63,337 nucleotides of DNA, filler included, from Reclinomonas americana ATCC 50394 (GCA_048213135.1; 4 parts of 3 records of this genome joined end to end with filler, not necessarily neighbours in it), one strand, 5' to 3'; shown: positions 3,301 to 47,300, counted from the first letter of the whole stretch. Made by a program: numbers and translations. The notes: generated by a model from the letters alone, not told the origin.

Positions 3301-6300
3301 CACGGTCAAGGTGGTGCCGAATTCGCTGCAGGTTGCCGGCTCCCTGCTGGTGTCGATCGATGCCAGCACGCTGCCACTCGGTGCAGTGACGACGGTATCG
3401 AATGGTGGCACGTTGGGTGGCACCTTCACCGCGGCTGGCAGCACAATGACGGTGGCGGAGCAGTTTGCGGTGCGTGGACTCGTGTTTAACGGCACCGCCT
3501 ACATGGCGCATTCCGTCGCGACACCACCGACGACGCTGGTAGGCAGCAAACCGTCGTTTACGATTGAAGTGTGGGCATTCAATCCGACTGTTGAGTCTTT
3601 GGAATGGTTGGTTTCGTGGGGCGTTCGATCGACGTACAACCAGATCTCTTTCGGCGCTGGTTCGCATACGGGTTGGGGGGCGGTGTCTCATTTCAACAGC
3701 GATGTAATTTGGAGTGCTGGAGGACCGCCGACAGCGAACGCCTGGCACCTGTTGACGTACACGTCGGATGGCACGACGGATACAATTTACATTGATGGCG
3801 TGCTGTCCAACACCGCTACGCAGGTGTCGCTTGTCATCAGCAGCGCGGTACCGATTACAATCGGATCACAGTACGACTCAAGTGGAGTGGCATATGCCGT
3901 TGGGCGTCCAACGCTCACCATGGCTCGTATCCGTATCCACAGCGGTGCTCTTTCTGCTGCGCAAGTGCTTGCCAACTTTCAGCAGGAGCAGTGTGTGTTC
4001 CTGTCGTCAGTGGTTGTCGGCGGCAGTCCCTTGTCGGTGGCCACTGCTGGCACGCTGTTGGTCTCCATGGACGCCACTGGACTGGCGCTGGGTTCTGTTA
4101 GCACAGTCAGCAATACTGGATCACTGGGCGGTGTCTTCACGGCGACAGCGAGCACCGTGACTGTGGAGCTGACGAATGGTGCTCGTGGTCTGCAGTTTGA
4201 CGGGACGGCATACATGCCACTGTCGGTAAGCACGCCTGCGTCGCTGAAAGGCTTGCGTCCGGTTCTCTCGATCGAGGCGTGGGTGTTGAATCCAGATGTG
4301 GCGATAGAGGAGACGATTGTCGCGTGGGGAATTCGAGCAAACCAACAGTGCTTTGTATTTGAGTACGGCAGCTTTAGTGCATGGGGCGCAGTTGTTCATT
4401 ACAACGATGATATGCCGTGGGGATCACCAGTGCCCGCGGCCGGCACGTGGCACCACTTGGTGTTTACATCGGATGGGACAACAGAGCGTGTGTATGCTGA
4501 CGGATTTCTGTCGAATTCGGGAATCAAGAACCCCAATATCTCCGCGTCCACACCCATCACTCTTGCGTCGCAGTACAACGGCGACGCAAGTCCGAAAACA
4601 ACTCTGCGTGGCACCCTGACGATTGCTCGGCTGCGTATCCACAGCAGCACGTTGACGGCGGCGCAGGTGTTGAATAACTACATGGCGGAGCGTAGCACGT
4701 TTCTGTCGAGCTCCTCTCTAACGTGCACTGTACCGGCGGGCGACTGCAGTGCTGCGGCGACCTCGCTCATCAGCATCGGCGCCAAGAGTGTGGCGAGTGG
4801 AGCGTTGACTGTGGCAAGTGTCACTGCTGGCACGGGAGCGTTGATGGCACCCATGGCCGTGTGTCACATGCCAGTGTCCGCAAGCTCGTTTATCGAACAG
4901 GCGCAGCCGTTGATCACTGCTCGAGGTGCGTGACGGGCGCAGCGAAGGGTACCACCATTTCTTCCTTGTGGTCACTGACGACTGTGTTGGGTGCTGGTCA
5001 TACAGCCACAATGACTGTTTCTGCAGTGTCGCCAAGTACCATCCACCGGCGATCGTGGCAACTTGTCTCGTTGACGGGAAGTTGCGTCGCCCTCATGTTT
5101 AGAGCATCTTTATCCGAAGTACATGTCTCTAACCTGCGGTCGTCGTCATGCAGCCAACTTTTTCGACTTGTCCACCAGCGGCGACTCTGCAGCAGCGGTG
5201 CTATCATCGAATGCGGTGTGTGTGTTCCGTTGCACACCATGAAGCACAGTCTCATCAGCACTTCTAACGACTTGTGTGCAATTGTGCAGAACTGCAGCGG
5301 TACACTGGTGGTGGTGGCGACGTACCAGTCAATTGTTCTCGTCAGCAACAGCAGCTTGTGGGTGCTACTCGATGTGTCGAGCACGGCTGCTGGCACCTAT
5401 GTCATGTGCATCCGGGATCGGCCAGCCGGAGTGTACGTGCTGGCCGGGTCGGTGACCGTCGGTGAGTTGTCGTTACAGGGCAGAAAGAGAGGAGATGAGA
5501 GGGAGAAGCGATGGTAGAAGGCAAAGGTAGACGGTGCAATAGAAGATATGGTGTCTGGGGACAGAGGCACAGAAAAGAGTGAGAGCGATTGCTTCGGAAA
5601 GTGTTGATGACTGCTCATTGGGTGGTCATGTCGCGCATTGTCGTGTTTGTGGGGCACAGAAAGAGTGAGAGCGATTGCTTCAGAAAGTGTTGATGACTGC
5701 TTATTGGTGATCATGTCGCGCGCATCGTCGTGTTTGTGGGGCATTGCAAGAGTGAGGGCAGTGGAATGCAGTGTTCAGAATGCATTGGTTACTGCTTATT
5801 GGTAGTTTTGTCACGCGCACTTTCATGGAGAGGAGGGAAAAGAAATAGGAGACGGAGGTACGGAGAGAAACGACGGCATGTGGCAGAGGAGAAGGAGAGT
5901 GATGACTGCAGATTTGTATGCAATGCATGTTGTTAGTGCTGCATGGCAACCTCATTCTCTGCCCTCTCCACCTTCCCCTGACATTGTTTTTGCTGCCTCA
6001 CCGCAGTGCAAGCCACCATGTCAGTATCGACAATTTCAGCGGCCGCTGCGCAAGCGATTGCACTGACGGGCGGCAGCATGAGCAACACCAGCGCCGACGC
6101 CATGGCATTCATCGTGTCGGCTGACTGCACTGCGGTGTCGCCAGCAGTGGTTGCGTCGACCAGTGTGAGTGCGACTTTTGTCAGTGCCGCGAGTGTCAAT
6201 CTCTCCGTGAACGCCACCGGTGCCACTGCTGGAGCGTACTCGCTGTGCGTACGCTGGACATCCGGCAGTGCGTATCAGTCGCTCGGATCGCTGTCCATTG

Positions 6301-10595: not shown

Positions 10596-10653
<58 letters not shown>

Positions 10654-13467: not shown

Positions 13468-15292
13468 ATGACAACCACAGCAACGACGACCACCGCCACC
13501 AACCCCGTCGCCTTGAGCGCCGACGAGGCACTGGAAGAGGCGCTCCAGCAGTCTGTCATTCGCGAGGCCATGGTGCACGAGGGTGTGGAGGTGGAGGAGG
13601 TCCGGAGCATTTTGCGACCATGCATCCTGGCCTTCCCCAATGGACGGGCACAGGACTTGAAGGCAGACGATCGGAAGAGGCGCTTGGAGGAGCTGAGGGA
13701 GCGCTATCCGGCGTTTTGCAAGGTGAGTGGTGTGCGGACACGGAGAATTCTTGGTGTGAGTGAGTGAGTGAGGGCGCGTGTCATGAGTGGTCACTGTGTG
13801 TGCATGTGTGTGTGGCGGTGTGTGCTGCGTCTCTCGTGGCTATGTTGTGTTCCATACAGCTCTGCGATTTGCATGCCGCCGGCATCAGCATAAGATTGCT
13901 GTTTATCTCAGTCTCTCTTCCTCCCTCTCTCTTCTTTGTCTGTCTGTCAGGCGTCTGTGTCTCTTTTCCCGCAGTCTGTCTATGTGGGTGCGTGTGTCTT
14001 ATTCCACTGCTGGGTTCTGTGTGGGAGCGATTCATGTTGTCGTCAATATGCACGCTGGAAACCAAACCTTCCCCCAATACCGCCGTCTCATATTCTCGCA
14101 TTCTCGCACACACTCTCTCTGCACACACACTCTCTCTGCACTCGCCACCACCGCAGTGCTACACATCACTTTGTCTAGCGGAACACTCCCTCTTGGCGTT
14201 CTTTCGTGAAAAGCACACGTGCATTCGCACACGCACAGGACGAATCGATTGCCTAATCAGGAGATGCAACTTTTTGTGCAGGTCTTGCCGACCCACCCGG
14301 TGAAGGGCGAGCGCATGGAGAAGCGATGCACGAGGCGGCGCATCCGCCTCAGCTCCGTGTTGAGCATGGTCAACGAGGAGAGAGCGCGCCAATCGTTGCG
14401 TCTTTTTGCTGCGTCCTTTTTTGTATCGAGTTGTGTTCGGTATTTCGTGACGCCGGTGGTGGTGGTGACGTGCAGGCGCAAGGCACTGAAGAAGAACGAC
14501 TGCTTGTGGCGCGCATGCCGCGAGGCCTTGATGGCGCTGCAAGGCGCCAGTCGCAAACGCGGCTGCTGCAGCCAATGGCGCATGCTGTCGACAATGGACT
14601 GGTCCGACGAGGCGGAACAATTGACGGTGGCGCACGAGCAGAGAATGTTGGCGGCCGCGGCCGGCGACAGCGACACTGTCTGCAGCGCCTCCACCACCGA
14701 CGACGGCGACGAAGCAGCGCCTCGCCGTACGCGGCGTTCAAAGTCGACGGGCCCGCGCAAGTCGCGCGCGTGGGCATCCGCTGCTGCCGCTGCCGGAGAG
14801 AGCAGCGGAGGCGGCCATGTCGCCGCTCCTCCGGCCAACCATTTCACGCACACGAGCGTATTTGAGCAGCCGCCACTGTCGCCGGACTGTCGCGACACAT
14901 TGCCGCCGTTCCCGCCGCCGCTGCTGCTGGCGCCACCTGTGCTGCCGATGATGGTGTTGGAATCTGGACAGGCGCCAGTGCCACTGCCGCAGCGCGGACC
15001 CTCGGCGCTGATTGTGTTTTCGTCTGCCATGAACGCGCCGCTGCTGCCGCCGTACGCGGTGATGATGCCGGTGGCTCCGTCGCCTACGACCGATGTCCCC
15101 TCGATGTCGCGCTTCGATACCGGCGCGTCGATTCCGGATTCGTTGCACCTCGGCGAGCTCGAGTGCATGCAAGCTGCGGAAGCGGCGGATGCCGACGCGG
15201 AGAGAATGCTGGCGCGCGAGGGGTCTGTCGACAGCGACGACGCTGGCGATGCGGAGTGGTCGCTGTTTTGGCCGCAGGTGCCACACCTATAG
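13468..15292 (+). CDS. Hypothetical protein, possibly a divergent bHLH transcription factor with a Pro-rich and acidic C-terminus
   Basis: Exons 13468-13722 (AAG|GTGAGT), 14282-14394 (C|GTTGCGT) and 14476-15292. Spliced product contains ADDRKRRLEELRERYPAFCKVLP...KALKKNDCLWRACREALMALQ, resembling bHLH basic/helix 1 and helix 2. The gene itself is well supported; the bHLH call is tentative. Confidence 0.6.
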
Positions 15293-15902: not shown

Positions 15903-18879
15903 ATGCGCAAGGGCAAGTCTCTCTTGGGCGACCAGCTCGCCGACCTACTCAACCCCAAGCCACGCGGTACGTGATCCTCCTTGCACTCTCTCTCACACAC
16001 AAGTGTCCTCGCGTGTGTGTCTGTGTGCGCCATGTGCACATTCACATCACCAACCTCACCTCGCCGCTTTACTTTGTGTAGACTTTGATCCGGAGGAAGC
16101 GGATGGTCGCGCGCAAGTCGATCGTTATGTAGCCAGCGATGAGGAAGATAGCGGGAGCGATGATGATGATGATGGCGATCAGCGTGTGCGACGACCAGCG
16201 GTGACTCACCAGTTGCGCTCATGCACTCACAACACGCACACGCACACAGAGGCACTCGTCCTCTCACTTGCTGCACAAATGTCTCTCTTTCTCTGCCTCC
16301 TCTCTCATTGCATGCAAGCATTTGCAGCACTCACTTCTTGTCCCTCTCTTCATTGTCTCTTCTCCCTTCTCTTCCCCTTTCCCTTCTCCTGCAGTCGTTG
16401 CATTCACTCTCTGTTTGCCCCCTCCCTCTTCCCCCTCCCTCTTCCCCCTTCGCTCATCCCCCTTCTCTTCCCCCTTCTCCTTCCCCCTTCTCCTTCCCCC
16501 TTCTCCTTCCCCCTTCTCTTCCCCCTTCTCTTCCCCCTTCTCTTCCCCCTTCTCTTTNNNNNNNNNNNNNNNNNNNNCAGAGGATGAAGGAGAAGACGAG
16601 GAGCAGGAGGAGGAAGGGGAGGAGGGTCGCACGCGCACGCTGCTGGAAGAGCTGCAGGACTTGAGTGACTCGTACGACGAAGACGAGGAGGATGAGGAGC
16701 AGGAGGAGAAGAAGAAGAAGAAGAAGCAGAAGAGCAAGAAAACAAAGAGGAGAAAAGCGGCGGTGGTGAGTGTCAATGGTGGTTTCCTCGCGAAAGAGCC
16801 CCTTGCTTATGTTCTGTGCAGGAGAGCGATGACGACGATGATGACGACGCTGACGATGGCGATGAAGAGGACGGAATGGGACTCGGGGAGCTCGGCGATG
16901 AGCTGGAGACGATTGCGCGCGAGCAGCAGAAGAGCAAGATGAAGCTGGTGTCGGATTCGTCGGCAGACGATGTGCAAAAGGGACTGCATGCACGGAATCA
17001 AAGAGTTGCGGGCGACAAGACGCAGGGGGGTTTGGGATGCGAGGCTTTTTGCTGACTCTCTGTGCACAGGGCCTCTACAACTCGTTCCTGCGTATGCGCA
17101 TCCATCTGCAGCGACCGCTGACGGCCACCAACCGCCTACCGCAACACGACACCCTCGGTGCCTTTGTGGAGTCGTCTGCCAAGGCAAAATCATCGCTGGA
17201 GGCGGCCAAGGAGACGGCGTACTCGCTGTTTGGCGACATGCTGGCGCTGGAGCGTGTGTTGCACAATCAGCGCCCGGAGAAAGGCAAGACGTCGGACATG
17301 GAGGCTGAGGGTGACGATGTGGCGCCGCAGAGCATTGACGAGGCGTGGGAACGGCTCGAGGCTCATCGGCAAGTGCTGGACGAGTACCGCGATGAGACCC
17401 TGGAGCGTGTCAGTCGGCGCGTGCAGGTCACCAGCGGACAGTCGTTCACGCAGCAGTTCAAGGCTGTGAACTTGGTTTGTTTTTTGATTCATGATTCAAG
17501 ACATGGGCTGTCGTGACTGACATGCAACGTTAAATAGGGTGTCATCTCTCAAGTGCACATGCTGATGCGAGCACCGGAGCGACTTGTGGGGAAGACACAG
17601 CAGAAGCGGTTCGAGGGGCGCATTCTTGGCAAGGTGTGTGTTTGGTTCGAAGATCTCTCATTGTCAGTGTTGTTCAGAACTCTTCGTGTCGTTTGTTCTC
17701 CTCTTCTGTCACTCTTGGTTTGCATTCTGAGCTCTGCTTGCCTTTCCTCTCGCCACTCTCCTCTCCCCTGCCTCTCGTGGATCTCCACCTGGCCGTTTTC
17801 TAACCACCAAGCTGCTTCCGCCCTCTCCTGTCTCTCTTGGTTGATCATCGCCCTTCGCTGCTCTCCTCTTCTGTCACTCGGCAAGTCGTAATTGTGAACT
17901 CCTACTTACCTTTGCTCACAAACCTGGCATTCACAGCTTCTTGTTCTCATGTCTACTTGTCATTATGCGCGCGTCTTGCCACCCTCTCTTGTCTTTCTTG
18001 GGTGCTGAGCGACTTCCACCCTCTCACAGCGCATTTCACCCCTGACTGTCGTTCAGATGTCCATCTGCAATTTTTCTCTCTTGTTGCTCTCTCTTCGTGG
18101 TCTGATTGCATCTGCGTCCTTTGTTCTCTCTCGCCCTCTCTTTTTGTTTTGACGTTCTGGACACCACCACGTCTCCTTTGTTCTCCAACCCGTCGTTCCC
18201 TGCTTCGTTCTCGCATTCTTTCTTGTCATTCTATCGCCACTCTACCTCCGCCCTCTCCAGTCTCGTGGTTGTCATTATTTTCCCCGTTCCTGGTCGTCGT
18301 TCCAACTCCTACGTGTCCTTTTCTCTTGTTGCCTTGCATCCACTGCCCTCTGCTCTCGTCCTTTGTTGTCATATGTGGCCCCACCTGCTGTTTGCTCTCT
18401 CATGACTCACTCTACTCGTTGCACTGCTCTCCTTTCACCCTAGGTTGTCAGTTTTCGCACCAGCGTGTCCGTTGTTCTCCTCCTCTGTCTTCCTTCTCTC
18501 CTCCCCTGTCTTCCGCTCGCTTCCCTTTCCCACTCATCTACCGCTCTTTGTTCTCCTCTCCCTCTCTCTTTTCCCTCGCACAGCGCCCTTCTTCCTCCTC
18601 CTCCTCCTCCACCACCACCACTGGCGACGATGGCGATGCTGGCGAGCCACCGCAGAAGCGCCACGAGATCGACGAGGAGATCTTTGATGACACCGACTTT
18701 TACCAGCAAGTGTTGCTCCGCGACATTATCAGCGAAACGACAGACGGAGGCGCGGGTGCCGACGACTTGGAGACCATGATGGCCTCGCGAGCGCTCCAGC
18801 GACGAGTGCCGTCCATCAAGAAGCACTACGAAGACAGAGGAGGCAGCAAGGGTCGGAAACTGCGGTGCGTGGGGGACAC

Positions 18880-19132: not shown

Positions 19133-22100
19133 TCATGGTCGGCGGTGGATGCCCAATTGCTCGTCCTCCACTTGCTGCAGGAGCGTGAGTGGCGCAGTGT
19201 GTGCATAGTGCGGAGACTCATCCGTATCGTCGTCGGCGTCGTCGTCGCCGCCACCGCGGTGCAGTGCCTTGGTCAGTCGATGCGCTGTGGCACCAAAGAG
19301 GGCCTCAAAGCGCGGCGAGAAGCGACGGCAAAAGAGCACGAGGTCGCGCAGCCCGCCAAACATGACGCTCTGCGTCATGCGCGGTCAGCAGGAAATGGCA
19401 GACAACAACAAGAGGATGAGAGTCACCTTGATGGGCGCCTCAGGTGCATCGGTGTGAGTTTCGTCTCCGGCGGCCAGCGACACCAGCAGCGGCACGAGGT
19501 CGCGCCACGCACCCAGAAACTGCTGGTATGGGAGGGCCACGTTCTCCGCATCCACACTGCACACATCGGCAAGACGGGTGGTGAGGCACTGAAGGAGCAA
19601 TATATTTCCTCACTCTATCCCTCCTTCGCAACGTCTTGTGAACAGCCAGACACGCCATCTTCGTGCATCTCCACAGGACCAGCAAGTACTCTTGATCAGG
19701 CGAAGGCCCCTCTCTGTGCGAGGAATGAACAACAACAAGCAACTCGGAGAGGAGTTCAAGCGCCGATGACGCAACGAATTCTGCAGCTGCGCCACCCCCG
19801 CCGCACCACCACCACCACCACCACCACCACCACCAGTAGCGGTAGCCTCGCCTCGCAACGCACACCACTGCTCGCCGACAGCATCACACAATCTCAATAT
19901 CACTTCGGCATCGTTCGCCAGAGTCGTCGACTCATCGTCAGCCGTCGCTGCGCGTGTGTCGTCCAACTGGCGGCAGCTGGCACCGTCGCGACACCGAATA
20001 CGAGCGGCGGCAACCAGCAGCCAGAAGAGAATGCGCAGCTGTGCGTCGCGAGCGCCAGTGCTGGCAGTCTGCAACGGCACCCAAAGAGATTTCAGCATGT
20101 GAAATAGAGGGTTCACCGGTTGCCACTCCACTCACCGCTGTGCCTTGCCGACTCGCCGGCGCCGCAAGCATGGCAGAGAGCATGTCGGGCGACTGGCACG
20201 CCAATCGGAACGCACACTCGGAGGCCACTCGCAGCGCATCCACTTGATGGGCTACGAAAACGGAAGAGATCAGAAAAAAACGGGATGCGAGAAAAACGCA
20301 TGCAAGCAAGAGGACGAAACAGGGCACGGGCGGAACCACGGGCGCAGCAAGCATGTCCACCAAGGTCGACCATACGGCACGCGATCGCATTGACGCGGCG
20401 AGGCCATTGTGGAAGCGTGGTGCAGTCATGTCGAGTGCACAAGCCTGCACGACGGGTGTGAGTAGCAGCGCTCTAGAATCTGTGAAACGACACATGCACG
20501 CACCTCCAGTAACCGCTGGAGCTGTGCAAAGTACGGCGCCGTGCCGTGATCGACACAGGCACGCAGCAGGTTTGTCAGCTGCGACACCGAGTCGTCGGCA
20601 CTCAGCAACGGGAGACCGCGACCCGGAGTGTTGTGCGCGAGAATTGCAGCGTGCACCTCGCACACGGCCCCAATGCTGCACACCGGCGAGCGCACGGCCG
20701 CCACTAAACTGCGACGGATCGCGTCCACGCCCTCCAGCGACTGCCGCGAAAATGAGAGAAAGAGCATAATGTCAACGCGCAAAGGAAGACCAACGCACCG
20801 ACAGTGGCCGGCGAGCTGCCGAAAGCACCGCCTCGGCCAGTCGAAGGAGGGCGGTGCACAAGTCGCCGTCAGAGGCCAGTGCCGGCTGTCGCATCACACT
20901 CTCGAGCAGACTGCCGACACCGTCCACATGCGACACGTCGAGTTGCGCAGGGCACGCAAAACGCATGTACACCACCAGCTTGGAGATGGTGGACGCTGGA
21001 GGGACGTCGGCGGTGGCCGCAAACGGATCCGTGGAGGAGACAAAATCGGCGAGCTGCACGCACAAAATGATGGAGAGACATGAGAAACGAGTTGCTCTCC
21101 TCTTCCTCGCTATTTCTTCAACTCACCGGCTTCTCCAGCGGCAGCTTTGCTTGCAAGAGCAACTCTTTCAGCTCCACAAATGCCGCTCCGTGATCTGCCA
21201 ACACTCGACTCTGCTCGACCGCATCAATGGCCACCAGCGAGGAGGTGGTCACGCGAGCGAAAGCAGAGCACAGGAACTCGGCTCGCAGCGCGCGCCATCG
21301 ACTGCTCGACGCTCCCTTCTGCGGCGCCACGCACAACGCCTTCACCACCGTGCACAGCGACGTCGGAGAGACCCACGACTGGTGCTGCACAATGACGCGA
21401 CAGCACTCGAGCGAGGCCTCGCTGGGCTCGCCGGCCAACACCGCCGCCGATGTTGCTGAACAGCACATGGTGACCAACGTCTGCAACTCGCTGGAGTCGG
21501 CCTGAGGGGCGCCGTCCCGAAACACGGCCTGTGATGTGTGCAGAGGGAGTGAGAGATCAGAAAGAGACAAAAAACAAAGGAGAACGTCGCGCACATGGCG
21601 AAGCAGGGCGCAGAACGCAGAGCGCCAGTGCGCAGCGCACTCGGCGTTCCAAGGTGCTGAGGTCACGCCCAACGCCGGCAACAACAGGCGGAAGAAATGC
21701 ACTTGCCATGGTCGAGCGTTTCTGGCGTTTCGACAACGGTGAGATTGCAGGGCGACAGCAAAGGAACACATCGCAAGTCAACCAACCTAGAATTGCGCTC
21801 CACCCACTGTTGCATCTCCCGAGCAATCAGGAGCTGCAGCGGGGAATCATATCGCGATTCACCCGTGACCTGTTGCTCCACTTCGCGCGTCATCGCCACC
21901 AGACAGTGGACGTACGGTTCCGAGCTGGCGCCTGCGACCAACACTTCAGGTCGCTGCGCGAGGCACTCCAGCAGCCGGAAATACAGCTCCACGCTTGCCA
22001 ACTGCCGAGGCGGGGGGGGGGGGGGGGGGAGGTAAGCTTCTTGGAAGAGCAGAGGTGGTGAGCCAAATACAAAAGACCTTGAGACTCGTCAACTCCGTGT

Positions 22101-25868: not shown

Positions 25869-26102
25869 NNNNNNNNNNNNNNNNNNNNNNNNNNNNNNNN
25901 NNNNNNNNNNNNGAGAGAGAGAGAGAGACAAGAGAGACGAGACAAGCAATTCAATCAAATGGCGTATGGGAGCAAGAAACAAGAGCGGAAACAAGAGGAC
26001 GAGAGAGAAGCTGTCCAGTCACGAGAAAAGAGAGAGAGAGAGAGAGAGCAACTATCTGTGTATGAGTGAGTGAGGGTGAGAGTGTGTGGGAGGTGTGTGT
26101 AC

Positions 26103-27422: not shown

Positions 27423-28706
27423 GGAGAGCAATGGAGGCTATTCCCCCGTGACACGCGAGTCGCGATATCAGACTCTTCACTCGTGCTCTCTCGCTCTTTC
27501 ACACGTACTCAAGCACTGAGAGAAGGAGAGAATGAGAGAGCTCTCACCCGCAGAGGCACACAGGGAGTCGCACCAACACACCCACTCATGCGTCCTTTGT
27601 TGATAGACTCGCGCGATTTGTGATATCATGTACTCTCTCTTCTCCCTCTCACACCCTCCTTCTCCTCCCTCGATCAAACTCACTGAGTGCGACACCCACC
27701 CATGCGGCCTTTGTTGATAGACTCGCGCGATTTGTGATATCATGTACTCTCTCTCCACTCTCTCGCACCCTCCTCTCCTCCTCCCTCGATCAAACACACT
27801 GAGTGCAACACCTACACACCCCCCTGTTGGCTGTCACGTGCGATCCGTCTTTCTGTCTGTCCCTCTCGCTCACATGGTGATCTTGCAGGGCGCTGGTCGC
27901 CACCGCGAAGACATCAACTTCATTCCGGATTATGCGCTGGTGTTTCCAAACCCAGGTTTGTGTGTCATGACTCTTTTGTAATGGATAGATGCCTCCCTGT
28001 ATCTCTCTCCCTCTCTCTCTCGCTGCGCGTGCATGTGTGTATTTGTGCGTGCGTGTGTGCGTATGTGTGTGCGTGTGTCTCCTCCCCCCTCTCACGGCTT
28101 CCTTCTCTACACCCATCCATTCTTTCGCGCTTTCTTTCTCGCTTTCCCTCTCACCTCCCTCCCTCCTCTCTCTCTCTCTCTGGTTATCCGCCATGTGCCT
28201 CTCTTATCACCTTCTGCTATTCTTTCTCTTCACTGTGGCTCTGTGTCCTCCCTTCCTCATTTCTCTCTCTCCCTTGCCCCCATCCACAGAGCACCCCCGC
28301 GTAAAGGGCAGTGCCAAGGCCGACCTCCCGGAAGCGCTCAACAACTACCGCATGCGCATGCGCGATGCCGGTCTCGATGTGTCGCAGCAGTACAGTGCCG
28401 ACAATGACGAGCTGTTCCTCCTCGGTGAGCACTCTCTTTGAACTCCTATCCACGCGCTTCGCTCACCTTGTCCTCTTGCGCAGTCGGCGCCTCGGATCGC
28501 GTGCTCGAGCAATTCGCCGACAAGCTGAAGATTGTCATGGAGACCACGCGTGGTGGTTTCCAGCCTTTTGAACTGAAGAAGGCCGACGAGTACAGAATGG
28601 AGGATCGCAACAATCACCGCCGCTTCGGACCGTCGACTCGTTGCGTCGGCGTGCTGTGTGACATGCTTTTCCCCTCTGCTCCAGAATGTGGCATTGACAT
28701 GACTCG

Positions 28707-28770
<64 letters not shown>

Positions 28771-29277
28771 CGCGACGCCGTCGTACGTACGTTACCGACT
28801 ACTCCTACCTACCTACCGAACGACGCGTCGGTACGGTCGGACGGACGGGACGGGACGGACGGTACGGACGCGGCCGTCCGTCGGTCGCGTCNNNNNNNNN
28901 NNNNNNNNNNNNNNNNNNNNNNNNNNNNNNNNNNNNNNNNNNNNNNNNNNNNNNNNNNNNNNNNNNNNNNNNNNNNNNNNNNNNNNNNNNNNNNNNNNNN
29001 NNNNNNNNNNNNNNNNNNNNNNNNNNNNNNNNNNNNNNNNNNNNNNNNNNNNNNNNNNNNNNNNNNNNNNNNNNNNNNNNNNNNNNNNNNNNNNNNNNNN
29101 NNNNNNNNNNNNNNNNNNNNNNNNNNNNNNNNNNNNNNNNNNNNNNNNNNNNNNNNNNNNNNNNNNNNNNNNNNNNNNNNGGCGTCGTCGTTGGTCGTAC
29201 GTAGTGTTTACCCGTTTCCCTTCCGTTCTCCTCCGAACGTAACGTAGGTCGGACGTAGTACGACTAGTCGTACGTAC

Positions 29278-29342
<65 letters not shown>

Positions 29343-32333
29343 CAGCGCCTGATTTACCGCATCCTCACCTCCAAGAGCTCGAGTGGACGCGAGGGCGACG
29401 TGAGCGCGCTCCGTGGCTGCGGCTTCAGTGCGTTTTTTAGCCAGCCCATTGTCTTGGTCCACACACACACACACACACACATGTCACTCACTTCCTTGCG
29501 TGATCAACAGAGTTCCGCAGCATGGTGAAGAACGGATTGCTGGTCAAGTTCTTCCCACTGCACGAGCGCACGGAGAAGAACAATCTGGAAGCCGACTGGG
29601 CGTCCATGAAGAAACTGTTTTCGCGTCAGCCGCTGGATCGCATTCGCCGCTACTACGGTTCCGTCGTATATTCGTCCCTCCGCTTTGCACCCTAACCTAT
29701 GTGATGGCTGACCGTGGTAATGTCGCGTGCAGGCGAAAAGATCGCCATGTACTTTGCCTGGGTCGGCCACTACACGCAAGCACTGATTTTGCCGGCCATT
29801 CTGGGTCTCATTGTGGGCATTTTCGGTGTCTCGCGGCGCGATGCCGATGGCCAGTTTGAGTGGGATAACGTGCTCACGCCGATTTACACGCTGTTTATGA
29901 TTTTGTGGGGTGCGTGGTACTCTTGACGACTTTGCAGAGCAGGCAGTGGACTGCTTGTATGCTCATGTTTTGACTCGCCACAGGTACCATTTGGAACGAG
30001 CTCTCCAAGCGCAATCTCAACACACTTGCCGCGCAGTGGGGCATGACTGACTTTGAGGAGACGGTTTGTGTGTGCGGGGGGATTGTGTTGCGCGCGTATC
30101 TAGAGCATCGTGCTGAACGCCATGTATGCGTGCGCACAGGAACGCGTCCGCGATTCGTTCCAGTCCGTCAAGCGCAAGGTAGTCATCATTCCGGATCGGA
30201 ACATTTACGAACTGCAGGTGCCGGTGCGTGTGCGCAACATCAACGGCGTCTACTACGAGCGCTACTTCCCGACAACGGCCCGCTGGCGCCGTTTCCTATG
30301 CACATTCCCCGTGGTGCTGTTGATGGTGCGTTGCTGCTGTAGGGCACGTGCTTTTTTTAATTCTGGGGCGCTCACGGAAATGGGGTACCAGTGCGCCGGT
30401 GTCATTATTGCCGTCGTGTTCATCATGCTGTGGCGCGAGAGCCGCATCAAGGATCCCATCATTAGCCCGAACCAGAAGCTGCCGTTCTGGGAGAGTATTG
30501 GATTCTCGGTGCTGATCGCCGCCATTGTGATTATCAGCGGTGTCGTTGCGTCGCCTATCCCGTGCACACGCATTAGAGGGGATGCGAAAGCTGCAGACTC
30601 ACTCGTTTCGGCCTCCAGATTTACAAGGTGGTGGCTCGCATTCTCACCAATCTTGGTGAGTGGAGAGTCTCTCTTCTCACGTCTCCGTGATTTGTGTGAC
30701 TCAAAACAATGATTTCATCTCACAGAGAACCATCGCACGGACACGGAATACGAGGACTCGCTCATTCTCAAGACCTTCTTCTTCCAAGCCGTCAGCAGCT
30801 ACATTGCGCTCTTCTTCCTTGCCTTCCTCACCACTCTCGGTGACTCGACAGTTGCGCCACTCCCCGTTTTTTTCCGACGTAAATCTTGAAGGGCAAGTCT
30901 CTCATTGTGTCTTCTTGATGTCGTGCAGACCAAGATCCGCGAAATGTTCAATCAGTTGCTCGTCATCTTGCTGCTGAAGCAAGTCGTCGGCAACATTCTC
31001 GAGCTGACCATTCCGTTGCGTCGCCTCTTGCGGTAGCCGTACCCACGCTGTTTCTCATGTTCATTCTCGTTTGCATCACCGCAGTTACCTGAAGAAGAAG
31101 TTGTGCTTCTGGCTGGAGCGTCGTCGTGCCAAGAAGGCGACTGGCGACGGCGGCATTCTGCCCAAGTGGGAGGAGGAGTCCAAGATGAGCATGTACGAGA
31201 CACCGTTTGAGGACTACTTGGAGATGTGTTGCGTAACAAGCTGCTGGTGCTCGACTGGATATACTAGAAATTTGTGCAATTCTCACTTGCCATTTTGTGT
31301 TGTGTGCCGTAGGCGTGCAATTCGGTCACATGATGATGGTGAGCGGAACGGAGTATGCAGCACGAACTGTATGAAGGCGTTGAACTCACCTCGCTCTCTC
31401 CGTACATAGTTCGCTCCGGCTTTCCCGTTCGGTCCCACGCTGTCTCTCTTCAACAATGTGGTCGAAATTCGTATCGATGCCATCAAGTTGATGAAGAACT
31501 GCCAGCGGCCGGAGGCTCGTGGCGCTGAGGACATTGGTGCGTGCGAGAGTGGGCCGAAATGGAGGATGTTGCCGTGTGCTCATCATCTATCGTACAGGCA
31601 CATGGCAGCAAGTGCTGGAGGCCATTGTCTTTGTGGCCATTGTCACCACGTCGGGCATTATCTGCTTCACTTCGTCGACACTGTTTGTCAACTACTTCAA
31701 GATCGACGAGAACAACGTGTCGAACTTTGATCGACGACTGGCATTCATCATCATTGAGCACGCTCTCATCGCCATCAACGTGCTGCTGAAGTACTTGATT
31801 CCTGATTTGCCCGGCACGTTGCGTACGACGACAAGGAGGGAGATGGAGAGGTAAAGGGCATTCGACTCATTTCGACTCACACACTCTGTGCATGTCACAG
31901 TGTGCGCAAGTCACTGGCTCTCGACGAGTACGAGCGCAAGCAGGCCTACCTCAAGCAGAATGGCCTCGCCAACGACGACGACGAGGTGGACCCCGACGAC
32001 GAGTTGGAGCAAGGTGCGTAGTAGTAGAAGGGAGAGGAGGTGAAACGAGGGAACAAGCATTCTCACTTGTGCGCACAAACAGTGGCTTACGATTCGAGCA
32101 TCATTTACGGCCCGGTTGGAGGTGCGCCGGTTGGTGGTGCGCCGGCTCCCGGTGGCACTGCACGGCCGCCGTACCGTGGAGAGACCATGGTGCCACAAGC
32201 GGCGCCGACAGCGGCTGCTGTGTATGCTCCAGTTGCGTGGCAGGTTGAGAGAGGAAGAGGGAGAGTGAGGAATGAGAAGGACAGGGAGGGAGAGGGAGAA
32301 GGGAGGACGAGGCAACGCCTCGGCACATATTGA
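26827..32333 (+). CDS. Anoctamin/TMEM16 family protein (short-loop, ANO8/ANO10-like), at least 19 exons; 3' end uncertain
   Basis: Spliced motifs PDYALVF, STRQRLIYRIL, FFPLHE, QPLDRIRRYYGEKIAMYFAW, LTNLENHRTDTEYEDSLILKTF, KQVVGNILE, FEDYLEMCVQFGHMMMFAPAFP, NNVVEIRIDAIKL, QRPEARGAEDIGTW, IIIEH, IPDLP. Putative exon 1 (26827-26859, MASAAPPASPT) is in phase with the exon at 27889. Confidence 0.93.
27550..27815. repeat. Intronic tandem repeat, about 115-nt unit, about 2.3 copies
   Basis: ACACCCAC.CATGCG.CCTTTGTTGATAGACTCGCGCGATTTGTGATATCATGTACTCTCTCT...CCCTCGATCAAAC.CACTGAGTGC occurs twice. Confidence 0.85.
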
Positions 32334-33133: not shown

Positions 33134-35858
33134 TTACGCGGTCGGGCGATCCCACGAGGTCTGCTGCGTGTAAATGTTGTAGAAATAGCGCTGTCCGTCC
33201 TCAGCAGCGTGCTGCGCCCATCCGTGTGGCAGCGGTGCCTCGGCAGTCGCCGCGGGGGGTGCCACCGCCATCGGCTGCTGTGTCGGCGGTGCCAACAGAC
33301 CACCACCACCCGGACCACCGCCCCAACCCTGCGCGCGCGCACACACACACTCACACACATTAAGTGGCTGCACGCTGTAGTATCACCAGCCGACATTACA
33401 AACCTGTGCATACCCGGCACCTGCCGCAAACGCCGGCTGTCCGTGCGCCCCAAAGAACTGCTGCTGTTGCGGTGGTTGCTGCTGCTGTTGCTGATGGTGA
33501 TGTTGCATCATCATATGCTGCTGTTGTTGCGGCGGCTGCTGCTGCTGCTGCTGCTGGGGCGGCGGCTGCTGTCCGTACATGTGCATCTGCTGCGGCTGTT
33601 GCTGCTGCTGCTGCTGCTGGTGCGGATGCTGGTGCTGTTGTGGNNNNNNNNNNNNNNNNNNNNAAACCCTGCATCATCATCTGCTGCGCTTGGTGCTGCT
33701 GCTGCTGCTGCTGCTGCGGTCCACCAGGGAAGTATCCTTGTGGCTGCTGTTGCTGCTGCTGTGGCGGCGGCATCGGTGCTTGTTGCATAAACTGCGGTGG
33801 TTGCTGCTGCTGCTGCTGCGGCGGCGGTGCACCCGGCGGCATCGGTCGCTGTTGCATCTGCGGGTGCGGCGGAGCCTGCATGGACTGCGGTCCCCACCCC
33901 TGCTGCTGCTGCGGTGGTGGCTGCTGCATTGGCGGCGGCTGCATGGGCATCGGGGCTTGCGGCATGCGATGCGCACCTCCGCCAAAGCCAGCGTCCACGT
34001 GCTGCGGCATCATTTGTCCGGGAGGAGGCTGCTGCTGCTGGTGCTGCTGTGGCGGCGGTTGCTGCAGCAAATAGCCACCACCCTCACCGTGCTATATGAA
34101 TTGAAGGCGCATGAGTTATATCAACACGACGCGATAACGAACAATAGAGAATAAACGCACCGGGTCAGGGCGACGGCCGGGTGGCGGTGGCATCGGTGCC
34201 ATCATTCGCCCGCCCTGCTGGAAGCCGTCGGCATCACGCGGCTGTGGTGGCGGCATTGGCTTCATGGGAGGCGGCGGCATGAGGCCACCACCAGCCGGCC
34301 CACTGCCGTCGTGGGCGTGCATCATGGGACCGGCACCAGCGGGCACATACGGCCGTCCGTCCATGAGCGGTTCTCCACCTCCGCGTCCCACTATGGGGGG
34401 AGAGGGAGTTGAGAACAGAGCGAGGCAACAGTGGACTAGAGAAATGCGAGCATGACAAACCAGCAGGCGGCGGACCCGGGCGCTGACGGCGAGAACCACA
34501 TGACGCAAGTGAGTTACGCAAGGAGAAGAACGAGGCGCCACCCCAAACAAGAGACGCAACGATCGGTGGCGGAGCCAAGAGAGACGCTTGCCCGACATTG
34601 GGAGGCGGGGGGCCGCGCATCATTGGCCCCGGAGGGGCAATCAGGCCGCCGCCACCGCCGCCGCCACCGCCACGGCCGAGACTGACGGGGGCGGGCAGGG
34701 CACTGCCAGAGGAACTGGAGCCGCCGCCGCGGGAGCCCGAGTTGTCACGGGCGCCCTGTGGGAAGGGGGTGAGACGGAGCACAGAAGGGGAAAGGGAGGA
34801 GAAAAAGGGAAAGGGTAAGAGAAGGGAAAAGGGAGAGACGGGAGAAAGGGAGGGAGAACGAGAAGCTGGGGAGGAGGGGAATAGGAGGGAAACGCGAAGG
34901 CCAACAAGGACGAGAGAGAAGGGAAAGGAGAGAGAGAAGGAAAGAAAGAGAAAGGGAAGAGTAGCAGTGCGAGAAGTGAGACGAGAGAGGGGGAGAATGA
35001 GAAAAGGAAAGGGGGACGAGAGAGTAGGGAAAGGGAAAGAGAAGAAGCAAGGTGAAAAATACGTGGTGAAACAGCGACAACAAGAAAGGAGTAGAAAGGG
35101 AAAAGGAGAGAGGGACGCAACCTCAATACACGAGAGACGAGGCAAAGGATCGACAGAATAAGAGAGAGCGCAGGCGGTGAGTGACGAGGAAGACAAGAAA
35201 TGAGAAGGAATTAGGGNNNNNNNNNNNNNNNNNNNNNNNNNNNNNNNNNNNNNNNNNNNNNNNNNNNNNNNNNNNNNNNNNNNNNNNNNNNNNNNNNNNN
35301 NNNNNNNNNNNNNNNNNNNNNNNNNNNNNNNNNNNNNNNNNNNNNNNNNNNNNNNNNNNNNNNNNNNNNNNNNNNNNNNNNNNNNNNNNNNNNNNNNNNN
35401 NNNNNNNNNNNNNNNNNNNNNNNNNNNNNNNNNNNNNNNNNNNNNNNNNNNNNNNNNNNNNNNNNNNNNNNNNNNNNNNNNNNNNNNNNNNNNNNNNNNN
35501 NNNNNNNNNNNNNNNNNNNNNNNNNNNNNNNNNNNNNNNNNNNNNNNNNNNNNNNNNNNNNNNNNNNNNNNNNNNNNNNNNNNNNNNNNNNNNNNNNNNN
35601 NNNNNNNNNNNNNNNNNNNNNNNNNNNNNNNNNNNNNNNNNNNNNNNNNNNNNNNNNNNNNNNNNNNNNNNNNNNNNNNNNNNNNNNNNNNNNNNNNNNN
35701 NNNNNNNNNNNNNNNNNNNNNNNNNNNNNNNNNNNNNNNNNNNNNNNNNNNNNNNNNNNNNNNNNNNNNNNNNNNNNNNNNNNNNNNNNNNNNNNNNNNN
35801 NNNNNNNNNNNNNNNNNNNNNNNNNNNNNNNNNNNNNNNNCGACGACGACGACACACA

Positions 35859-40247: not shown

Positions 40248-43136
40248 TCACGCATGCCGCGAGTCGTCAAGCCGCTGCGGCTTGAGCGCGGCGAGTGCAC
40301 TGCGCACGGCTGGATCGCCGACGACCGGACTGCCCATCTTGTAGTCTACGACAAAGAACGTGGCCAGGAGCGCACTGGCAATGACGGCGGTGACCAGCAA
40401 CATCAAGAAGACGTTGGTGAAGCCAGTCGAAGACGAGCTGAGCAACCCACTCGCCACGTCGAACACGATGGCGGCCAGAGCGCCAAACTGCGCGCAGAAG
40501 CAGTCAGCAACCAAATGCAAGCTGTCAGACACCTCGAACGGAAGCACACCGAGTCCAGCAATCCCGACAAAAAGCCAACGTCCTGCTCTCGCGCCTTGCA
40601 CGAAAACACAGACATTGGCAGCCAGACAGCAGGGGCTGCGAGTATCTCACTGTGAGCTGCTTCGTGCATTTTCTGGGGAGCGCGGCGACAACACAAGACA
40701 GCTCACCGAGCAAGAACCCGTAACCAAAGATCAAGAAGATCGCCATCGGCACAGTCTCAAACGACAGCCCGTTCAACATCCACAAGAGTCCAATGACCGG
40801 GCACAGACCCACTGCACGATGATGAAGAAAAGGGAAAGGTCGGTGATTCATCGAATTGCACACCAATCGACTGTGCCACGAACCAAGCAAGCACGTTACA
40901 AACGCATCACCGGCGTGCGTGTGATGTCGCACCGTCAGCCGATCGATAACAACACCGGCCACAAGTAATGACATCGCCGAGCCTGCGCAAAGCTGCACGG
41001 TAAGCACGTGCGCTGTTGTGACAAGTGTGTTGAGTGAGGAAATCACTCACCACCAGGGAAGACGGCAGTGAATGCCGCTGCCTTGTTCTCGTCCATGTGG
41101 AATGTATCTGCATGTGCGAGGGAGATGAGCGACAGTACGACACGACTGGCCGCGTGCGTACGCAACCGACGAGGAAAAGCGGAACAAACTGGCGCGCCGC
41201 AGCATCAACAACAAGACAAGCAAGCAAGCAAGCAAGCAAACAAGCAAGCAAGCAAGCAGCCAACAAGCAAACAAGCAAACAAAAACACCAGCGACAAACA
41301 GTGGTGAGTGCCACATTCTGCATGTATCAAAAACAATACCGACGCACATCGATGAATTCCCACACAATGGCCGCAGTAGCGAGGAACAGACCTGCACGCT
41401 AAACACCGTCAGCATATCTTTCCGCATCCTCACTTCCCTCCCACCCACTCACCCATGATCCAAAACCGCGGATCTCTGCAGAAGCGACCGAGTGAGCTGG
41501 AGTGCCACCGCTGACAGCACTTGGTGCCGCAGCACCGACGATGCCGTGCATGCAGATCGACGGCAGGCGCCGTCGCCACAAAGGCTGTTGGAATCGTCCC
41601 TTGATTGGAGGGGTGCAGCAGACCGCGCGAGTCGACCGTTGACATTTCTACGGACTGCATCGACGTCAGCGAGAGTACCGTGTCAGGCCGAATGGGCGAT
41701 TCGGCGCCGCGTAGATCCGCCAAGCGTTTCAGCTCGATCTTCACTGGCGACTCCGCGAAACCGGCCCTCTCCGGACTTCCGCGCAGGAACTGCAGTGAAT
41801 TTATCAACAAGGGAATACCTCCGCCTGAGCCAACACTCGATCTCCACTCTCGCTCTTCACTCTCGCTCCCCTCTCGCTTCGCGCTCCTTCCCCTTGTTCG
41901 CTACTGTAGCTTTTCGCTTCCCTGTCTCCCCCCTTCCCCCCGCCCCCGCCTCCCTCACAGCACGCAACAATGGTAGTGGTGGTAGTTGTGACAACCAGCA
42001 CTGTGCCGCAGGTGAAGAACACCTGTTTTAATGCTGTAAGTCCAAGTCCTTCCCCCGCCCACGAATGCCCGCAAACTCACCACACGCCAGCTCACTCCCG
42101 CCGTGAGTAGTGCACCGACGGCCAACTCCGACAGAATGGAACCGACGGCAAAGGCGGTGGAGAAGAGGCCCCACACCCTGCATTCGATCAACTGTCACAC
42201 ATCCAGCACATTCAGTCAGCGTACAGCAGGGGACGCAACTTGCCGTAGCCTGAGGGGAAAATCCAGTTCTGCACGTGCTTTGCGAGTGCTGGCCACGCCA
42301 CCGAGCCCGAGAAGCGAAACACGGCAAAGCTGAGACTGAGGTACGCAAAATTCGGGGACACGCTGAACAGGAAGCAGGCTGTCGCTGGTCCACACACGGC
42401 CACAATCATCGACGCCTGCGCGCACGATTGACAGGTGTCAGACAAGTTCGCCCAGCTCTACTCTGCCCCCTCCCTCCCTCTCTCTCACTCTCGCTGACCT
42501 TGGCGCCGATCATGTCCGACACGAAACCGAGCACAATCTTGCCTGCCACATCGGTCAGATTGCCGACGGCGAGCAGAGTGCCGGCCTCGGCGTTCGAAAA
42601 CGGCTGCCTCATACAGTAAGACACGTGCTGAGAGAGCAATGCTGTGCAGAGAATTCCAACGTCCCACCTGCAGGCCCTTGTCCTCGGTCATCAGCGGCAA
42701 GGCCACGGCGAGACTGGCGCGGGCGAAACACAAACTGCGTGCATGCAGCGCCGTGTGAGTCACACACACTCTTGCACAAACCACTGCAGAAATGCGTGCG
42801 CACCTGGCGTAAGCAATGTACAGGTTGAGGACCACTGCCAGTACCACCGAGTCAGTTAGTCTCGCGACGGAGGGGAACGAATGAGCACCCACACACGCAC
42901 CAATAATCTGCCATCTTCGGAACGACATGTACCGACTGCGCAAATGTTGCATGTGCTCCCCGACGACTGGGAGCGTTGGGGGCTGAGCGTGGGTCATCGG
43001 TGTTGCCGATCGCCGTCCAGCCTCACTCGGCGCCACCACGATAACCTCGGGAATTGGACGGTCGTCTGAGCGGGAGAGAGAGAGAGAGACGACTGAGTTG
43101 GGGAGAGGGAGGCACAACACCTCCTTCGAAACTCAT
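40248..43136 (-). CDS. MFS transporter of the organophosphate:Pi antiporter family (SLC37/G6PT/GlpT/UhpC-like), multi-exon
   Basis: Spliced motifs YIAYASLCFARASLAVALPLM, GTLLAVGNLTDVAGKIVLGFVSDMIGAK, SVAWPALAKHVQNWIFPSGYGK|VWGLFSTAFAVGSILS, SWRV|VF, FLRGSPERAGF, DPRFW, GVVIDRL, with many hydrophobic helices. Confidence 0.8.
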
Positions 43137-44290: not shown

Positions 44291-44334
44291 NNNNNNNNNN
44301 NNNNNNNNNNNNNNNNNNNNNNNNNNNNNNNNNN

Positions 44335-47300
44335 TGCCTCGTCGGAGGAGGAAGAGGGACGACGACGCACCACGCGTGGTAAGGTGGTGGAGGACGATGG
44401 GCCGTTTGTGGTGTTGAATACGCATGCGCGCCGGCCGCTGGCGGGGTCGACGGGAGTGGGCGTGGTGCCGCTGCGGCCGGGTCTGCTCACTGCGGCGAGT
44501 CTGTCGGCGCGTGATGCGGGTCTCATGCAGCAGCAGCAGCAGCAGCAGGCGGCAGAGGCGATGCGTGGGGGCGTGCGACTGGGTCCACGTCCGGTCACTG
44601 ATATCTCGTTCCAGTTGCCGCCGACGTTTGCGTTGCCGCCACTGCCCAGAGTTTCGTGCACGTCCTTTGTTGGTTTTGCGGTTGTGAAGCCTCACTTCGT
44701 GTGCCGTGTCCACTCCCCCCAACAGCCACCACAGCCACCTGGAGCTCTCGAAGGCAACGCGTATCTGGGCCTGTCACCGCCGCTTCCCAATCGTCTCATG
44801 TCGCCGTATGCAGGTGCGCCAAACAAACCATTCATGCAAACCTCTCTCCTCCTCTTGCATGCCTCACACTCGAATCACATGACAGAGGAAGGCGGTGCTG
44901 GCGGCGAGACGCGCTCACCCTCCATCTACTCGCCGCAAGTTCGCTACTTCCCGCGCAGTCTGACCGCAGGCGTCGGTTCACGCACGCCGAATTTTGACGA
45001 AGACTCCTCGGCGGACTCGCTGGGCATGACCCCGCGCACCGCTGCCCTATCACCGCCCGATTTGGCGTTCCAGGCGGCTTCACCGCCCGCCGCAGTGGCC
45101 CTGCGACGAGCAGCCGCGGCGGCAGCAGAAAAAGACACCCCGACTCGGCGACATCGGCTGTGCATCACGTGGCTGTGGGTCGCATGGGTCCTGCTTCTCA
45201 TCGGCTGTGGTATCGCCTTCTTCTTTGTGTGGCGCATACATCGCGATCAAGTGACATACAGCACCACGTCCAATACGGTGCGAATCGATTCAAGCGCCAC
45301 GTTGCGTTGTCTTGCTTTGCGTGTATTTCCTGGCACGCACCTTGCTGACGTACTGACTGCTTCCCGCACCACAGTGTCAGCGGTAATCTCACTGTAGCTA
45401 ATAATTCACTCGTTGTCGATGCAACGAGTTCGCGAGTCGGTGTGGGAACCAGCAATCCAACCAAGAGTCTAGATGTGAGTCCGCCCAGTCCCGATTGCAC
45501 AGTGCACCACGCGCGCATTGCTAATGGTGCGCGTCGATGTAGGTGGGTGGCGGCATACAAGCCAATGGTGGCACTCCGTCCGATTCGGGCGGTAATGTGG
45601 GCTACACGTTCAATACGGCCTCGTCATCGTCGTCCGCGTCTCCGACCGGTCTGTTTGCCAGCCGGTTGACCACCACAAACTCGTCGCCGGTGGCGACCAC
45701 CGTGCCTTCGGCACCGAGCGAACGAGGCGCGAGCTCTGGCTCCACAGCATTTGTGGGAGGTACACATTTCGTATCTGCTGTTGCTCCTCGCTCTCTGCCA
45801 GTCACCAACGTGCACCCTCCGACCAGCTCACGATGCGCCTACAATTTCCTCACGCGGTAGCCATGTGCCGTCACCCTCACCCTCACCCTCATCATCATCA
45901 TCATCGTCCTCCTCGTCAACATTCAACGCAGGCGGTGTCCCACCGTCGGTCGCCTCCGGTGCTGTGACAACGACGTCGGAGACCGCGATGGCTGCGTCTC
46001 AGCCGAGTGCTCATTTCCGTGGAGGTGTGTCACACACACACAGCTCCTTCGCTGCAGTTGGTGACGTGTTCGTATTGACGTTCATGTTTATTCCTGTCCG
46101 CCGTAGACACAGAAGCCAGTCCCCGCAGCACCGATGCAATGTCTCGGTCAGCGCCGGGGAGCACTCGAGGCGGATCACTATCGTCCCGTGGTTCGTACTT
46201 TTTTGCGCCACAGCAACATCGCACCTGCTGATGGTCGCCATTACTGTCCTCACTTTCTACCCTCTGCGTCGCTCGCTGTTGCAGCACCCACCACTCACCC
46301 TGTTATGAGTTTGGTGGTCTCCGGCACCGAAATGCTGCGCGTATCAAAAGAAGACAGCAGCAACACTCAATACTGGCACATGGTGGCAAATGGAAGTGCG
46401 TACATTGGCGGCTCTACTCTGGCTCTCGGTCGCCGCTCGGAGGCCGTGGACTCGGTCTCCACCTCCAACTTGGCGGACTCGTATGGTCTTGCGCGAGCAA
46501 TGCAAGTCATCTACGCCACATCGACACAGCCGACTCTGGTGCTCAATTATCAGGAGGACTTTAGTGGTGGTACGTCCTTTTTCTCACCACGCTTGCCAAC
46601 ATGTGCGTGTGCGTGTGTATAACCATGGTGCGCGCTCTGTGTTTGTGTGTGCAGGCCTCCAAGTCGGCAATCGCGCTCTCAAAATCCAACCGCTTACCGG
46701 GTACACCAGCTTTGGTCACTTGAACCCACGCGCTCAGATCGATGTGGCCGGTGGCGTGCGAGTCAACAAGGGCGTGACGAACGACCCGTCGACTTCGAAT
46801 GCTGGTTATTCCTTCGAATCGGACGCACTCACCGGCATGTTTGCCATTGGTACGTACGTGTGCATGCCACCGATAGTTTTTCATCAACGCCACGCTTTTC
46901 TTGCTGCTCACTCCGTTGTGTTGCGTGGTACAGGCGGCACCGCGGCGGACAGCAGCGTATTGACATTGTCGAATCAAGGCGTTGGGCGCATAATGGTGCC
47001 GCCGAACACGGGCACTGCAGTCCTCGTATCCGGCGACTTTAGCGTCGGCGGATCGACGCTTCGTCTCGGTTTGGGCTCGCAGGCCGCCAGCGCAGCAAGC
47101 AATCGCGCTCTCACAGCCTCCGGTCTCAAGCTGTCTCTGAATCCGGTGGGCGACTTTAATCTTGCGGTCATTGGATACGGTGTCGATGGCGCGGGACTTG
47201 TCCGTGTGCACGAAGCCCTGTCGTCGACGGACATGACGCTGGAGGTGTTTGGTGGAGTTCGAGCTGCCACGTCGTACCCTGCGTCGACTTTGGACGCCGG

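Follow-up and report, generated by a model that had tools for sequence, protein, structure and literature searches.

GTTGCG donors as a probable second class of 5′ splice sites in a 63-kb window of the Reclinomonas americana genome

The systems closest to the one considered here are the shifted-register 5′ splice sites of mammals, reportedly described by Roca and Krainer in 2009, and the sites of the bulge +2/+3 register, which are said to have been described by Roca et al. in 2012. To our knowledge, such offset pairing between a 5′ splice site and the U1 small nuclear RNA (snRNA), whether shifted or bulged, is known only as a rare mammalian exception. Here we consider a window, meaning the whole stretch of DNA analysed, of 63,337 nucleotides (nt), filler included, from Reclinomonas americana ATCC 50394 (GCA_048213135.1), in which putative introns of several genes begin with GTTGCG. 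Compared with the ordinary donor G/GTGCGT (the slash marks the exon–intron boundary in donor sequences), these carry an extra T, and they mostly follow an exon base other than G. Nineteen such positions had been proposed in a first-pass annotation and are referred to as the listed sites. As judged from the sequence, GTTGCG donors are probably a real, abundant, and lineage-specific class, and a variant of the shifted-register or bulged 5′ splice sites already known.

In humans, 1.5% of 201,541 5′ splice sites belong to validated noncanonical registers of any kind, and the bulge +2/+3 register has 68 predicted sites, or 54 after curation (Tan et al. 2016, PMC4856993). The GTTGCG sites resemble the shifted-register sites of mammals in that they start with GU, carry the U1-pairing block one base deeper, and have G+1 in the slot of the exonic G−1. 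Unlike those sites, which are rare in humans, they make up between roughly one fifth and two fifths of the introns considered, follow a strict consensus of their own, and show poor shifted-register complementarity to standard U1. With the bulge +2/+3 sites they share the order of a GU, an extra U, and then the ordinary block, with one U looped from the U1 helix; however, their abundance differs by orders of magnitude, and a bulge should favor a G at the exon end, which is found in none of the 7 donors chosen by a donor-blind gene finder and in none of the 19 listed sites, as against 19 of 25 ordinary donors. A whole lineage with donors that pair poorly with U1 has a parallel in Fritillaria borealis, in which the GT/AG rule has been given up and for which the authors leave a shifted register open (PMC13326754), whereas GT-AG is kept in the present case and just the downstream block is displaced. 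U12-type introns likewise constitute a second, highly conserved donor class, but their donor and branch-site consensus is missing here. An abundant GTTGCG-type class is not described in the literature on human shifted and bulged registers and on tunicates, within the sections of those sources used here and supplements aside.

The analysis is based on the window itself, which is eukaryotic, has approximately 57% G+C, and is broken by 19 runs of N, together with protein relatives. Pfam matches place an anoctamin gene on the + strand at 29.5–32.3 kb, an AATF gene at 16.6–19 kb, and lectin, LamG, PAN, and TIG reading frames at 0.4–7.5 kb, while no Pfam match was found for the remaining genes with listed sites, so that the earlier label 'MFS' is without Pfam backing. 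GTTGCG is read at all 19 listed coordinates, on the right strand and at the right position, and is preceded by A in 7, C in 9, and T in 3 cases and never by G, exactly as had been claimed. The consensus extends further: T occupies +7 in 16 of the 19 and C occupies +8 in 11, ten of the donors being GTTGCGTC and three sharing GTTGCGTCGCC. In the left 47,377 bases of the window, T follows GTTGCG in 27 of 48 occurrences, compared with 24 of 87 for A/C/T-TTGCG (Fisher p = 0.0015) and with a probability of 0.214 for T after GCG (binomial p = 1.5 × 10−7), and C follows GTTGCGT in 13 of 27 occurrences as against 0.26 expected.

The evidence for individual introns comes mainly from the anoctamin gene. 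A search with its first exon against 1.84 billion representatives gave 150 homologues, none of them close, and a profile was built from the 38 of these that have 550–1100 amino acids. For each junction, every frame-open GT/GC-AG and AT-AC pair was enumerated and the products were scored against the profile, which recovers ordinary donors as the best ones at 29910 (g/GTGCGTGG), 30064 (g/GTTTGTGT), 31339 (g/GTGAGCGG), and 31537 (g/GTGCGTGC). At 31015, where an intron of 70 nt (31015–31084, +) runs from c/GTTGCGTC to the acceptor CACCGCAG, the GTTGCG donor is the top of 12 GT/GC/AT candidates (39.9 vs 34.5 bits, +5.4); pairwise, its junction is the better one in 20–25 of 28 informative homologues, and it is gap-free in 9 of 11 uninterrupted relatives from metagenome loci. 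The intron of 85 nt that lies within the LEM-C/VQFG motif (31228–31312, +; donor t/GTTGCGTA, acceptor TGCCGTAG) has the top donor of 9 candidates (29.1 vs 22.5 bits, +6.6), other GT donors being incompatible, and its junction is better in all 22 informative homologues and gap-free in all 9 relatives. For the intron of 83 nt at 31818–31900 (+; donor c/GTTGCGTA, acceptor TGTCACAG), the donor is the top GT/GC-AG candidate, with 68.1 bits vs 62.2 (+5.9) for the canonical-looking gag/GTAAAGGG at 31851, and the junction is better in 26 of 32 homologues, the alternative being better in 4, and gap-free in 6 of 7 relatives. An AT-AC pair nearby reaches 70.6 bits but is devoid of a U12 consensus and was set aside. 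The margin is small at 30545, the donor (c/GTTGCGTC) of an intron of 74 nt (30545–30618, +) that leads to a 37-nt exon at 30619–30655: it is the top of 47 candidates, at 87.9 vs 84.4 bits (+3.5) over ggt/GTCGTTGC at 30542, with a better junction in 4 of 6 informative homologues and a gap-free one in 4 of 9 relatives.

For comparison, the ordinary junctions of this gene are gap-free in 10 of 10 to 17 of 17 relatives in conserved stretches and in 2 of 9 and 4 of 10 in variable loops. Removal of the introns thus leaves a frame colinear with the homologues at 31015, 31228, and 31818, and weakly so at 30545. The proposal that frame and conserved motifs require the GTTGCG donors of this gene is supported by homology for these sites, weakly for the last, and does not extend to a fifth putative intron (30851–30928, +), for which homology does not separate the donor a/GTTGCGCC from c/GTTTTTTT, a rival in frame at 30866. 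With this intron included, the class contributes 5 of the 12 introns of the curated anoctamin model. Among the metagenome relatives, which come from 32 loci, none is close, the best showing 67% identity over only 30 residues, and no locus has an intron position in common at any of 11 anoctamin junctions. Word-index searches with an anoctamin exon and an AATF exon gave no matches, and the clusters to which 7 of the anoctamin homologues belong carry no organism names other than those of a ciliate and Ancoracysta. As a separate observation, the presumed single anoctamin exon contains an ordinary-looking, in-frame intron of 66 nt at 30326–30391 (+), from g/GTGCGTTG to GGTACCAG, which was chosen in all four blind settings and lies in a homologue-variable region (gap-free in 2 of 9).

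A gene finder that makes no use of the donor sequence points in the same direction. It is a Viterbi exon/intron model that requires just GT (or GC) and AG, has neither a donor nor an acceptor matrix, leaves the −1 base out of its splice signals, and took four long reading frames from outside the anoctamin gene as its training set, followed by three self-training rounds; the expectation was derived from the 48 GTTGCG among 5,919 GT sites. In four settings, GTTGCG was found at 7 of 90, 4 of 50, 6 of 98, and 6 of 87 predicted donors, compared with 0.4–0.8 expected (p = 6.6 × 10−6, 6.7 × 10−4, 1.2 × 10−4, and 6.3 × 10−5; 0.0017, 0.17, 0.031, and 0.016 when multiplied by 256 hexamers), and it ranked first or second by enrichment among all GT hexamers in each of them. 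The donors at 5081, 30545, 31015, and 31818 were picked in all four settings, 42239 in three, and 30851 and 31228 in two. Outside the anoctamin contig, a variant with an acceptor matrix chose GTTGCG at 5081, 16212, 45301, 34560, and 23057, five against 0.53 expected (p = 1.6 × 10−4). It should be noted that self-training drifted once acceptor or donor matrices were used, and the donor-trained run is no independent evidence. GTTGCG makes up 7 of the 32 blind-picked donors with a recognisable consensus, and 10 of 52 introns in a supervised run that gives the motif a bonus. That the frequency of its use is close to that of G/GTGCGT, the most frequent ordinary hexamer, and that it occurs in several genes and on several N-delimited contigs, is supported by these predictions. 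Set apart from this count, a predicted donor t/GTTTCGTC (20252–20320, −), chosen in two of the four blind settings, is one base off GTTGCGTC and also follows a base other than G; from this donor, the motif may tolerate T at +4.

The contrast at the exon end given above is marked among the blind picks (p = 0.0005) and recurs in the anoctamin model, in which G stands at −1 in 7 of 7 ordinary and 0 of 5 GTTGCG donors (p = 0.0013). The statement of the first-pass annotation that ordinary donors mostly follow G is therefore borne out, and its non-G rule for the GTTGCG class holds as a tendency. The absolute form does not: four GTTGCGT sites after G occur, of which two to four, unlisted, look usable, so that the rule is a strong tendency and 'never after G' is too strong. 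In other respects, the introns are ordinary in anatomy. All 19 sites start with GT, and 15 could be given a YAG 3′ end that leads into a frame-compatible exon; 14 of the introns are short, at 62–85 nt, those at 26860 and 23855 measure 131 nt and 230 nt, and ordinary introns measure 57–76 nt. Branch-site motifs of the CTRAY type are present in some. Cleavage ahead of the G of GTT is well supported, and we favor, with some reserve, the view that this organism has two genuine donor consensuses for its ordinary GT-AG spliceosomal introns, GTTGCGT(C) being the second.

How such a site may be read follows from an alignment on UGCGU, in which H/GUUGCGU matches G/GUGCGU at 6 of 7 places and G+1 falls into the slot of the exonic G−1. 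The UGCGU block, normally at +2 to +6, would sit at +3 to +7, and the pairing of snRNAs at the site, that of U1 and later that of U6, would be offset by one base, either because U+3 is bulged out or because the whole register is shifted with intron G+1 replacing exon G−1, while the catalytic centre would keep the only GU available. With offset pairing, a G at the exon end would be of no benefit; a simple bulge of U+3 would still gain from it, and the G-poor −1 position hence fits the shifted register. If true, the introns would offer a natural system for how the cleavage position is set if the GU and the pairing with U1 do not share a register, including the handover from U1 to U6, as well as a test of the co-evolution of snRNA variants with splice-site classes. 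In addition, gene finders with a single donor matrix would mis-annotate a large share of the exons here, as in the anoctamin gene with its five introns of this class.

A number of points, including those on U1 pairing and on the base after GTGCGT in the next paragraph, weigh against this reading, and several of them fit a class that is mostly an artefact of hand-splicing and gene finding, with the introns using other GT or GC donors or being retained and GTTGCG being merely a common word near exon ends. A check against composition came out two ways: GTTGCG occurs 49 times on both strands of the window, vs 50 for GTTGCC and 49 for GTCGCG, so the hexamer itself is not over-represented, and 30 of its occurrences lie outside the list; it is enriched, nevertheless, at blind-picked donors and linked there with the −1 base. 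Rival donors exist for five listed sites. At 30866, the product scores 71.4 bits vs 70.7 for 30851, which is better in 15, tied in 10, and worse in 11 of 36 homologues, and the junction of 30851 is gap-free in 1 of 9 relatives; the finder favors the in-frame GTGCAAAA at 16972 over 17005, and 23883, the translation of which is a low-complexity run, over 23855; the supervised run favors the in-frame GTACGCTG at 42224, with an intron of 47 nt, over 42239; and the runs favor GTGCTGTG at 41963 or GTGAGGGA at 41958 over 41968 (41961–41968, −; t/GTTGCGTG). Sites 14395, 26860, 28640, and 32232 are without support. About a third of the 19 listed sites are unproven, five or six being without support or having rival donors, which qualifies the claim of a major class over several genes and contigs. 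The finder, moreover, is noisy, with exact recovery of 1–5 of 7 reference introns; its first version, with heavy penalties, gave 31 introns, none with GTTGCG, and missed the anoctamin introns; and 5 of the 7 blind GTTGCG picks come from one gene. Neither k-mers upstream of branch-plus-acceptor motifs (GTTGCG 5 vs 6.4 expected, GTGCGT 4 vs 11.5) nor a local exon-stitching score showed enrichment of GTTGCG, but both composition tests are uninformative because they show none for ordinary donors either. Against an artefact stand the junction at 31228, for which other GT donors are incompatible and all informative homologues agree, those at 31015 and 31818 likewise, the blind enrichment and the −1 contrast, which are unlikely by chance, and the T at +7, which is specific to G-TTGCG. 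On balance, we regard an artefact as rather unlikely.

Other explanations accept the donors and differ in what reads or spreads them. With the standard U1 5′ end, AUACUUACCUG, which may not be that of this organism, GUUGCGU forms a best duplex of −1.6 to +0.5 kcal/mol in any register, compared with −7.4 for GUGCGU, so a plain shift on standard U1 is an insufficient explanation, and GUUGAGU, the shifted version of GUGAGU, reaches −6.0 kcal/mol yet is never chosen, which weakens a simple-offset mechanism. Furthermore, of 22 G/GTGCGT sites, 14 have G as the next base and 3 have C, and by this contrast with the C of the GTTGCGT class (p = 0.023), the class goes beyond an ordinary consensus displaced by one position. 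The weak duplex and the next-base contrast together leave room for a changed or additional snRNA. In such a case, two GT-AG recognition systems would run in parallel, ordinary U1 reading G/GUNNGU and either another snRNA of the U1 type or a re-tuned U1/U6, the 5′ end of which would complement GUUGCGUC, pairing with at least a fifth of the introns. A dedicated reader would account for an 8-base consensus of the class's own, with a C at +8 unlike G/GTGCGT, for the negligible pairing with standard U1, and for the restriction of the extra base to T and of what follows to GCG, the blind finder having chosen GT[ACG]GCGT in 0 of 16, GTTGAGT in 0 of 7, and GTTACGT in 0 of 1 cases, all small samples. 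On the other hand, the sites are few, a protein contact or chance may lie behind the C at +8, and UGCGU is common to both classes and readable by one snRNA; we consider two parallel systems with a dedicated reader unlikely. An Rfam scan of the window gave no match at the gathering score and 47 weak matches at E ≤ 1, none of them to U1, U2, U4, U5, or U6. That the introns are copies of a mobile family, introner-like elements bringing their own donor, could be suggested by the recurrence of GTTGCGTC and GTTGCGTCGCC and is highly improbable: compared by eye in a stacked listing, the 19 sequences have no similarity past the first 8–11 bases, which argues against a mobile intron family, and their lengths and 3′ ends are as in ordinary introns. 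Least credible of all is splicing by the minor spliceosome as U12-type introns, which would likewise form a second, sharply conserved donor class; the donor is unlike RTATCCTT at all 19 sites, and the branch motif TCCTTRAY is present in 0 of the 15 introns with an assigned 3′ end.

A GTTGCG class of ordinary introns, the reading preferred here, can also be followed at listed sites outside the anoctamin gene. A putative intron of 73 nt that lies downstream of the lectin/LamG frame (5081–5153, +), with the donor a/GTTGCGTC, CTAAC at −25, and the acceptor TCATGCAG, was chosen in all four blind settings. Another, of 62 nt (42178–42239, −; donor a/GTTGCGTC), was chosen in three. Selection of the 74-nt intron at 45301–45374 (+), from c/GTTGCGTT through two CTGAC motifs to CACCACAG, was made by the acceptor-matrix variant and the supervised run and in none of the four blind settings. 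The intron of 78 nt at 34483–34560 (−; c/GTTGCGTC) was chosen only by the acceptor-matrix and donor-trained runs, and the one of 69 nt at 22989–23057 (−; a/GTTGCGTC, acceptor GACTGCAG) by these two and the supervised run, while three of the four blind settings took tct/GTATCCCC at 23048. Two putative introns were chosen only with the motif bonus, one of 62 nt at 19714–19775 (−; c/GTTGCGTC), which gives the frame ...QLQNS + EGPSPDQEY, and one of 76 nt at 19557–19632 (−; c/GTTGCGAA), which gives ...AVHKT + VDAENVAL. In the AATF gene, a putative intron of 65 nt (17005–17069, +) with the donor a/GTTGCGGG and CTGAC at −18 precedes exon 2, which begins at position 13–14 of 137 of the Pfam AATF-Che1 profile and at residue 233 of human AATF; the end of exon 1 has no match in PDB or Pfam. 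A possible intron of 230 nt (23626–23855, −; a/GTTGCGTG) is frame-consistent by reading and weak. The other listed sites are represented by the motif only at 14395–14475 (+; c/GTTGCGTC), where the shortest YAG-ending intron has 81 nt and no run predicts coding, at 28640–28647 (+; c/GTTGCGTC), near an N gap and treated as exon by the runs, and at 32232–32239 (+; a/GTTGCGTG), which was listed as tentative and is followed by a purine-rich stretch, or, at 26860–26990 (+; t/GTTGCGTC), were chosen only by the donor-trained run.

Several candidate donors lie outside the list. The donor a/GTTGCGCT at 16212–16219 (+) follows an acidic frame upstream of AATF, is succeeded by a pyrimidine-rich stretch, and was chosen by the acceptor-matrix and donor-trained runs. 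Two candidates on the − strand follow G: g/GTTGCGTA at 41159–41166, found by reading only, lies upstream of a possible start ATGGACGAG, and g/GTTGCGTC at 35114–35121, found by reading and by the donor-trained run, is followed by approximately 360 nt of pyrimidine-rich sequence up to CCCCAG; both are possible introns of untranslated regions. A further candidate, t/GTTGCGTC at 26317 (−), stands upstream of an exon-like frame, IGAKWFVLDIKWWRRFKNY..., behind a TTTTGCAG acceptor (26095–26317). The peptide of this region is presumably DUSP-domain-like, and a 37-residue piece of it has no Pfam match. Four of the GTTGCG occurrences in the window belong to two copies of GTTGCGTGTTGCGTATCCTGC, 129 nt apart, in a local duplication at 25197–25333 (−) with no evident introns.

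The window has other features of its own. A tandem unit of 150 nt (50 residues), in at least 40.8 copies of 83% identity, occupies 48541–59043 (+) inside an open reading frame of 2,103 codons, runs on across N gaps, and has no match to a Pfam family. Long CAG/CTG-type repeats at 33400–34100 leave several frames open on both strands, giving runs of Q, A, or L, and (CA)n/(TG)n microsatellites are common in introns and intergenic DNA, for instance at 26880–27050, 28700–28760, and 29270–29330 and elsewhere. The uninterrupted frame of 1,214 codons at 1289–4930 (+) carries legume-lectin and LamG-type domains and has 61 database relatives with 31–49% identity over partial length; the few that are named are bacterial (Planctomycetes-type), and domains shared with bacteria, or a gene transfer, are therefore possible.

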